Below, piece after piece: positions 53,008 through 53,807 of a stretch of 64,000 bases of DNA (the first letter of the stretch is position 1; each line of letters starts with the position of its first letter). Both the position numbers and the translations under genes were made by a program. The DNA lies in contig CM119265.1 of the NCBI GenBank assembly GCA_051294375.1, positions 16,684,005 through 16,748,004 of the forward strand. The letters are read 5' to 3'. Under the pieces are notes generated by a model. That model was not told the DNA's origin and did not search any database. It saw only the letters and a program-made list of their open reading frames with translations. Origin of the DNA: Paraspadella gotoi (lineage: Eukaryota > Animalia > Chaetognatha).

Positions 53008-53062
53008 CTCTGACCGACTTAATCTTAATCTTCAGTGAAATCAGAACAGCGGTGAGTCAGAG
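53008..53062 (-). promoter_or_regulatory. Conserved 5'UTR stem-loop of RPS20a
   Basis: CTCTGAC-TCACCGCTGTTC...AAGTCG-GTCAGAG; 7-bp closing stem; blocks shared with copy b. Confidence 0.75.
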
Positions 53063-53228
53063 CCAAAACTGAAATACACTTTAAGGAGAAACGAATGGAA
53101 TTTATTGAAAATAAAAACTTGAAACTTAACAAAAAGAATAGCGATTCCACAATGCTTAAAAAAAATTTTAATTTACTTTAATAACTTTGATTTGTTTTTA
53201 GAAAAAAGAATTTTGTAACGTTTTTTTT

Positions 53229-53734
53229 TCAAGGATCGGCGATGGTGACTTCGACCTCGACACCAGGTTCGATGGAGATGGAAGTGATCTGCTTCACGAT
53301 TTCCGACGGAGAGTGAAGATCGATCACGCGCTTGTGAATCCTCATTTGGAATCTTGGAAATTGAAAGAGCAAAGTCAAGTTTTTATAAGCAAGATATTCA
53401 AGTCGCTTTATTATCACACTGACCTGTCCCATGTCTTCGATCCCTCGCCACAAGGAGTCTTTCGGGTGGTAATTCTCAAGGTTTTCGTGGGCATTCTTAC
53501 GGGCCCTTTAACCTTAAGCTTTTTATCTTTAGCGCCATTGATGAGGTCGGTGCAGACCTTTTCCAAACTTTTCACGTTTCTGGAATAACAATGCGATTTT
53601 TATGATAAAATATGTCTAATGTAGAAATGAGACGATATATTAGATACACACCTTGAAGTAAGAGTAATCCGGATACGATGGACGTTGCTTTCCTCTCCAA
53701 CTGGTTTTCCAGCCTCAGGCTTGACAGCTGCCAT
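53229..53734 (-). CDS. RPS20: 40S ribosomal protein uS10/S20, copy b, three exons
   Basis: Same motifs and intron positions as copy a; divergent N-terminus [16 protein letters not shown]. Confidence 0.96.
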
Positions 53735-53763
53735 TGTGGAATCGGTAATTCTCGAGATACAAT

Positions 53764-53807
53764 TTCTGACCGACTTATTCAAGGTTTTGAACAGCGGTGA
53801 GTCAGAA
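53764..53807 (-). promoter_or_regulatory. Conserved 5'UTR stem-loop of RPS20b
   Basis: TTCTGAC-TCACCGCTGTTCAAAACCTTGAAT-AAGTCG-GTCAGAA; compensatory terminal pair relative to copy a. Confidence 0.75.

Follow-up and report, generated by a model that had tools for sequence, protein, structure and literature searches.

The RPS20 locus

The stretch of DNA analysed here (hereafter the window) comprises 64,000 nucleotides (nt) of contig CM119265.1 from the chaetognath Paraspadella gotoi. On its minus strand lie two genes in tandem, a and b, which we take from their protein sequence to be RPS20, encoding the ribosomal protein uS10; the match of their leaders to human rpS20, described below, agrees with that name. 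The two products are near-identical and 122–124 residues long, and both introns of each gene are backed by joints in contigs of run X1. The contigs of this and the other X runs used below are spliced but have no record as RNA, and they show no 5′ ends, strand or level. Ahead of its start codon each copy carries two short conserved blocks, which are predicted to pair into a hairpin (Table 1). Taken together, the evidence set out below makes it very probable that the conserved part of the RPS20 leader functions as an RNA structure, whatever its exact role.

Conserved blocks in the two leaders

A preliminary description of this DNA held that the two leaders keep an 18-nt and a 13-nt block exactly, some 20–30 nt before the ATG, although the introns and flanks of the two genes are unalignable. 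All of this was borne out. A pattern scan found both blocks in both leaders with 0 mismatches, the end of the 3′ block lying 21 nt (a) and 30 nt (b) from the ATG, while the introns and flanks of the copies share only words of at most 7–11 nt, A/T-rich apart from short 6–7-mers. The 18-nt block has only two matches in the window even when up to three mismatches are allowed, a number of matches given by 0 of 100 shuffles; the 13-nt block alone, with two mismatches allowed, is within chance (three matches in 12 of 100 shuffles). The longest word common to both leaders is 18 nt, compared with a maximum of 11 over 1000 shuffles, and a relaxed core of the hairpin occurs twice in the window. The spacer between the blocks is 22 nt in a and 11 nt in b.

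The RPS20 duplication is old: the paralogs disagree at 26 of 44 four-fold sites, yet in 97 of the last 100 codons the residue encoded by b is that of a. Given this age, and a longest shared leader word of 18 nt as against 11 or fewer, the blocks would have been kept by selection, or by conversion restricted to the blocks, rather than by recent copying.

Predicted fold

In both copies the basal stem (7 Watson-Crick pairs and a U-G) is predicted to be topped by a C-C mismatch and two pairs; a CGC/A internal loop separates these from an upper stem, which begins with UGUUC and ends in a free apex. The frozen internal region and the apical parts of 22 versus 11 nt fit the invariant internal loop and variable apical stem that had been described, and the compensatory change reported at the ends is also there, the outer pair being C-G in a and U-A in b. 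Overall, one of the 14 consensus pairs is changed on both sides between a and b. The internal region, UCACCGC/AGUCG, can adopt at least two near-equal registers, with alternatives within ~1 kcal/mol. Pair probabilities in the basal stem are 0.85–1.0 for the six inner Watson-Crick pairs, or 0.79–0.98 with the first coding bases added, and the opposite strand folds more poorly for both copies. The folding energy of copy b (z −4.46) was equalled by 1 of 200 shuffles; the bare hairpin is weak, at about −14 kcal/mol.

At position 53057, in the basal stem of copy a, the G read in one of the two covering X1 contigs keeps the fold (−13.8 to −13.2 kcal/mol), and the other, short X1 contig reads A. The difference may be an allele or A-to-I editing; X1 also departs from the window at 55299.

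Table 1. Features of the two RPS20 genes and their leaders (positions in the window)
Feature	Position	Strand	Basis or remark
Gene a for RPS20 (uS10), coding sequence in three exons; introns 52828–52898 and 52606–52671	52482..52987	−	translation, GT..AG ends, X1 joints
Gene b for RPS20 (uS10), coding sequence in three exons; introns 53580–53651 and 53353–53423	53229..53734	−	translation, X1 joints
Hairpin, copy a, 55 nt: basal stem (7 Watson-Crick pairs and a U-G) and upper stem on either side of the invariant internal region; apex long and variable	53008..53062	−	predicted fold
Hairpin, copy b, 44 nt: core as in a, 7-bp upper stem, 4-nt loop	53764..53807	−	predicted fold
5′ conserved block, copy a, 18 nt	53044..53061	−	exact match; 17/18 as in human and mouse rpS20
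5′ conserved block, copy b, 18 nt	53789..53806	−	exact match to copy a
3′ conserved block, copy a, 13 nt	53009..53021	−	11/13 as in human and mouse
3′ conserved block, copy b, 13 nt	53765..53777	−	exact match to copy a
Variable apical part, copy a, 22 nt	53022..53043	−	takes all 5 gaps of organism D contig
Variable apical part, copy b, 11 nt	53778..53788	−	leader comparison
A in basal stem, read as G in 1 of 2 covering X1 contigs (A-U to G-U)	53057	−	X1 contigs
Acceptor-like TTTCAG ahead of hairpin a	53069..53074	−	overlaps TCAGT word, 53068–53072
Acceptor-like TTACAG ahead of hairpin b, 73 nt past stop of upstream NLE/WD gene	53821..53826	−	sequence
AATAAA, likely poly(A) signal of gene b, ~30 nt before acceptor-like site of gene a	53101..53106	−	sequence

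Counterparts in mammals and other species

Alignments of 79 human/mouse ribosomal-protein promoters are given in additional file 3 of Perry (2005) (PMC554972). In these alignments, exon 1 of human and mouse rpS20 carries both blocks, with 17 of 18 and 11 of 13 letters as in the window (hand count), so that the human leader given in the preliminary description, with the same blocks and another compensatory pair, agrees with published sequence. All three differences between the window and the mammals keep the predicted pairing: a U-A pair has become C-G, which accounts for a change on each side, and a G-U pair has become G-C. Judged by eye, the upper stem of the mammalian sequences has five Watson-Crick pairs, above which stand a 3-bp stem and a 5-nt loop. 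Human and mouse are identical at 45 of the 48 nt of the hairpin, with all three differences inside the 5-nt loop, and at 32 of the 57 exon columns upstream of it (hand counts). The human hairpin lies at about +58 to +105, and the distance from the hairpin end to the AUG is 18 nt in human, 15 nt in mouse, 20 nt in a and 29 nt in b. The first exon of human and mouse rpS20 is long (>120 nt up to the AUG in human) compared with those of rpS17–19, 21, 23 and 24, and the surplus length contains the hairpin (PMC554972).

A further counterpart comes from organism D (run X6), where in one contig of 364 nt the leader continues into spliced RPS20 coding sequence. The small shares of runs X2–X4 enter into none of the claims made here. 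The leader match covers 48 letters with six differences and five gaps, all of the gaps within the apex, and 11 differences over 112 coding letters mark organism D as a different species. Across the homologs the spacer measures 22, 11, 15 and 17 nt. Since the hairpin is found both in spliced contigs and in annotated human exon 1, it is not excluded from the mature mRNA. Of the three outcomes that the preliminary description named as refuting it, none emerged where the data allowed a check. The element had been called pan-bilaterian; it is present in human, mouse, the window species and organism D, from which four species the wider term is an extrapolation. Nevertheless, because it spans mammals and a distant invertebrate lineage, the leader element likely arose early in bilaterian history. 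Few mRNA structures are recognisable by sequence between mammals and distant invertebrates.

Might the conserved letters be a DNA signal? The 5′ block contains TGACTCA, which we take to be an AP-1-type site (the heptamer TGA(C/G)TCA), and it is conceivable that this heptamer acts downstream of the start site and that the pairing is incidental. Neither RPS20 copy, nor human or mouse, shows any change in the heptamer, whose human position is about +61. However, such a site would leave the second block, the complementarity, the pair-keeping changes and the free spacer unexplained, given that conservation covers 31 nt in two complementary blocks. In addition, the heptamer occurs 12 times in the window, one X1 contig alters it while keeping the pair, and there is little room for a promoter, the genes lying 73–160 nt past the stop codons of their neighbours. 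We therefore consider a DNA element very unlikely indeed.

Pattern scans of viral contigs (0 loci; 42 with a looser pattern), metagenome contigs (8) and prokaryote genomes (0; 26 looser) returned 76 loci, which we rejected as chance occurrences in prokaryotic DNA. None had fewer than 5 mismatches over the two blocks, and no RPS20 gene adjoined any of the 8 metagenome loci, the other 68 loci being judged by DNA motif only. No animal locus came from these prokaryotic, viral and metagenome scans, and no protein-based search for RPS20 loci was made.

Gene specificity and known motifs

Over the 79 promoter alignments the core 8-mer has two occurrences, both in rpS20, although words broken at line ends would escape such a count; further 7–8-mers of the element are scattered singly elsewhere in the alignments (PMC554972). 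With a core confined to rpS20 among 79 genes and present in spliced contigs, the element is very probably an RPS20-specific conserved structure in the transcribed leader.

A covariance-model scan of the window against Rfam 15, a check proposed in the preliminary description, gave 0 matches at the gathering score, and at E values up to 10 it gave one chance match in coding sequence and none on the hairpins, which thus belong to no Rfam family. Nor was any microRNA family matched in Rfam. The latter result bears on the possibility that the hairpin needs no ligand at all and serves as a constitutive speed bump for scanning, as a near-cognate CUG upstream open reading frame, or as a small-RNA precursor. 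It is of a size resembling a pre-microRNA, and CUG codons do lie within the 5′ block, but their frames differ between a and b, the spacers differ by non-multiples of three, and a passive hairpin would have no need of frozen loop bases. The leaders hold no conserved upstream open reading frame, as there is no upstream ATG and the CUG frame is not kept across homologs. A ligand-free role thus seems very unlikely.

The hairpin is apparently undescribed so far. A literature search by title and start of abstract, partly weakened by the spelling of 5′ untranslated region (UTR), found no paper describing it, though subscription journals, genome-wide structure catalogues and supplements may list the locus. 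The 14-letter core is absent from all main texts searched, and the term rps20 has 0 matches in the main texts of PMC7941889, PMC8047918, PMC8216456 and bioRxiv 2020.06.29.165878 (term search) and in one supplement of PMC6288889. PMC2020476 yielded nothing on leaders, and passages of PMC9181716 are silent about feedback.

A candidate feedback operator

The blocks had also been placed downstream of a putative splice acceptor. Their position is as claimed, with an AG 7 nt (a) and 14 nt (b) before the start of the 5′ block, but no joint occurs there in the spliced contigs (alignments of X1 and X6/X7). An acceptor-like AG 6–14 nt ahead of the element in the window would suit a role in pre-mRNA processing, in which binding would block the adjoining splice site (the donor of intron 1 in mammals; the upstream cis or trans acceptor here), as in yeast RPL30, where L30(L32) inhibits both splicing and translation via one structure (PMC5640933). 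Apart from the missing joint, however, the adjoining splice site is opposite in kind and in side between the two lineages, the RPS20 genes of the window have no intron at the AUG, and the level of fly RpS20 mRNA is static on over-expression (PMC11496781). Control of splicing is, in our view, improbable.

Instead, we tentatively propose that the leader hairpin is a feedback operator, to which free uS10 is predicted to bind and so repress RPS20 translation. The invariant core would be the docking site for surplus free uS10, either by itself or accompanied by uS3/uS14, its partners in the head; the bound hairpin would then slow scanning or translation initiation in the cytoplasm, and the weak bare hairpin would block scanning mainly once clamped by its ligand. 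We are somewhat more hesitant about the broader prediction, that of an animal-wide operator, kept nearly letter for letter since the bilaterian ancestor, through which free uS10 would repress its own mRNA.

The proposal is built up as follows. Unpaired bases of the invariant core are as frozen as the paired ones, in contrast to the drift of the outer pairs and the apex, which makes it probable that a protein reads the core. The ligand would be uS10, given that other ribosomal-protein transcripts have gene-specific structures and that both old paralogs keep the site; the product of the gene itself is the simplest candidate. The step would be scanning or initiation, since distance to the AUG is the sole context kept in all lineages and the splice-site context differs. 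As far as the sequences go, an operator of translation that binds a protein would be expected to leave just such a pattern: a frozen core, unpaired bases included, drifting outer pairs and a free apex, in a single gene and both its paralogs, always near the AUG and in differing splice contexts. uS10 joins the 40S head late and in the cytoplasm, together with uS3 and uS14 (PMC9262593, PMC10827436), and because it joins late, a cytoplasmic pool of free uS10 could meet the mRNA. Its bacterial homolog, NusE/S10, binds RNA outside the ribosome, namely non-ribosomal double-stranded RNA, via residues that are also used on ribosomal RNA (rRNA; PMC3177189). In flies, extra RpS20 removes endogenous EGFP-RpS20 with its mRNA unchanged, and RpS3 does not (Kitamura 2024; PMC11496781), which indicates that gene-specific post-transcriptional control exists there; the unchanged mRNA fits control of translation better than decay.

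Several observations weigh against a feedback operator. The folding energy of copy a (z −0.96) is matched by 35 of 200 shuffles, and its upper stem contains a U-U mismatch. Among all four full sequences, two pairs are altered on both sides and one is G-U/G-C, too few for a covariation statistic. The leader element was seen in one (X6) of two other-species runs that come from a single study, the RPS20 contigs of organism E (run X7) giving no leader alignment, although a changed spacer may hide short blocks. Knock-down of Rpt2 or Rpn1 suppresses the loss of fly EGFP-RpS20, which was ascribed to the proteasome in a study that left translation outside its scope (PMC11496781), and since the fly proteasome clears excess RpS20, feedback at the RNA level may be unnecessary. 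Finally, a comparison with 18S rRNA, whose uS10 site the preliminary description had proposed to examine, revealed no similarity above shuffles: against the 3′ domain of one eukaryote 18S (L009), at the level of sequence only, the scores of the two blocks were reached by 276 of 500 and 497 of 500 shuffles.

The L009 sequence itself (positions 1–1087) comes from a contig classed as viral and is the 3′ part of a eukaryotic 18S rRNA; ~130 nt are inserted in its helix 39 expansion, and ~330 bases near the start have no match. A resemblance of the unpaired CGCU stretch to boxA, for which no source was found, was dropped as chance-level.

Conservation says that a ligand exists but not which, and another factor (an RNA-binding protein, an initiation factor or an assembly chaperone capturing uS10 while nascent) might read the structure for translation, localisation or co-translational hand-over, with no negative feedback. 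The lack of 18S sequence mimicry is in keeping with this, as is the fact that proteasomal clearance already accounts for fly homeostasis (PMC11496781). A general factor, on the other hand, would be expected on several ribosomal-protein leaders, whereas the core is confined to rpS20 among the 79 genes, and the literature search yielded no candidate factor. We regard a ligand other than uS10 as unlikely, and even with such a ligand the element would mark a hitherto unrecognised, ancient RNA-protein interaction.

How individual ribosomal proteins are balanced in animal cells is still debated, with feedback set against proteasomal clearance (PMC11496781). With an element of 48 nt in exon 1 of human RPS20, a handful of mutations could put this question directly to the test. 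Hereditary colorectal cancer has been tied to disruptive RPS20 alleles by a route not yet explained (PMC10827436), and an element that set RPS20 dosage would bear on haploinsufficiency and on the reading of non-coding variants in the RPS20 UTR. If the proposed operator is real, human cells would have a leader of the bacterial style, and the gene that carries it is one in which loss-of-function alleles are a predisposing factor for colorectal cancer.

Likeness to known systems

Ribosomal-protein autoregulatory structures are known from yeast RPL30 (L32; exon 1/intron; PMC5640933), RPL22 and RPS9 (intronic; PMC8047918) and RPL7B (PMC12311795), and an L10a element shared from worm to human is cited in PMC11496781. 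Like these eukaryotic elements, the RPS20 hairpin is a gene-specific structure in a non-coding part of the transcript, kept in both paralogs, and the yeast RPL30 element lies in a 5′ exon, as does the human RPS20 hairpin. The known elements, however, are mostly intronic and act on splicing, whereas the mature 5′ UTR contains the whole of the RPS20 hairpin, in a splice context that differs between lineages; moreover, binding of the cognate protein has been demonstrated for them, while the RPS20 hairpin is known from sequence and predicted fold alone. By analogy, the hairpin would putatively work like a ribosomal-protein autoregulatory element.

The only other RPS20-linked motif found in the literature search is the fungal ‘rps20 motif’ of Li and Breaker (2017), a three-stem structure in the 3′ UTR of 13 budding-yeast species (PMC5640933). 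It too is a conserved structure tied to the gene for the same protein, but it lies in the 3′ UTR and the RPS20 hairpin 5′ of the AUG (the two were compared by published description).

With bacterial ribosomal-protein leaders, which include the S6:S18 motif (PMC3854524/PMC3895269), the RPS20 hairpin has in common a structured 5′ leader that adjoins the start codon of a gene for a ribosomal protein. Imitation of the rRNA site is frequent among the bacterial leaders, as is action on polycistronic mRNA or on transcription, whereas the RPS20 hairpin showed no 18S sequence mimicry. NusE needs NusB, which is not known from animals. The iron-responsive element, a short 5′ UTR hairpin read by protein from invertebrates to mammals, is comparable in type, but the RPS20 hairpin has no sequence or Rfam match to it, and its apical loop is free and its internal region frozen.

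Neighbouring genes

The two RPS20 genes stand in a head-to-tail row on one strand, in the order galactosyltransferase, NLE/WD gene (presumably WDR12), RPS20b, RPS20a and DAP3, with gaps of 73–160 nt from each stop to the next acceptor-like site (cluster 52344–55749). Spliced X1 contigs cross the intergenic gaps, the ATG of DAP3 has an acceptor-like TTTTGCAG 3 nt upstream, and the row looks like an operon resolved by trans-splicing. The hairpin would be downstream, inside the RNA, whether the transcript receives a trans-spliced leader or has its own start site. The TCAGT word at 53068–53072 may just as well serve as an initiator. One X1 contig of 54 nt, which carries the reference allele (53027–53078, two loose letters), starts ~23 nt after the AATAAA of gene b and 10 nt before the acceptor-like AG; possibly it stems from 3′ cleavage or marks the site at which gene a starts. 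The 5′ UTR of the NLE/WD gene contains a cis intron (55639–55709) with its donor ~40 nt past the galactosyltransferase stop; this intron is removed in an X1 contig, which suggests a spliced bicistronic RNA or a promoter within the upstream gene. The cluster brings together ribosome-related genes, namely a 60S biogenesis factor (NLE/WD), the two RPS20 copies and the adjoining mitoribosomal DAP3.

The neighbouring SYF1 exon has 63–69% identity to 119 of its 120 best matches, which span all the bilaterian groups listed, and 83% to one protein. A quick SYF1 tree, built from 40 of 121 sequences picked to cover named phyla and without nematode, flatworm, xenacoelomorph, chaetognath or cnidarian rows, placed the window sequence outside the vertebrate, tunicate, ambulacrarian, arthropod and lophotrochozoan groups.

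From 442 to 56973, nearly all long open reading frames that match Pfam stand in a tight minus-strand row (HDAC, myosin, MIZ-finger, haspin, Med20, SDA1, SYF1, THOC1, POU, INTS14, DAP3, RPS20 twice, NLE/WD and galactosyltransferase), an arrangement like that of an operon-like animal genome. The POU-homeobox gene (42065–42745) lies amid housekeeping genes on the same strand.
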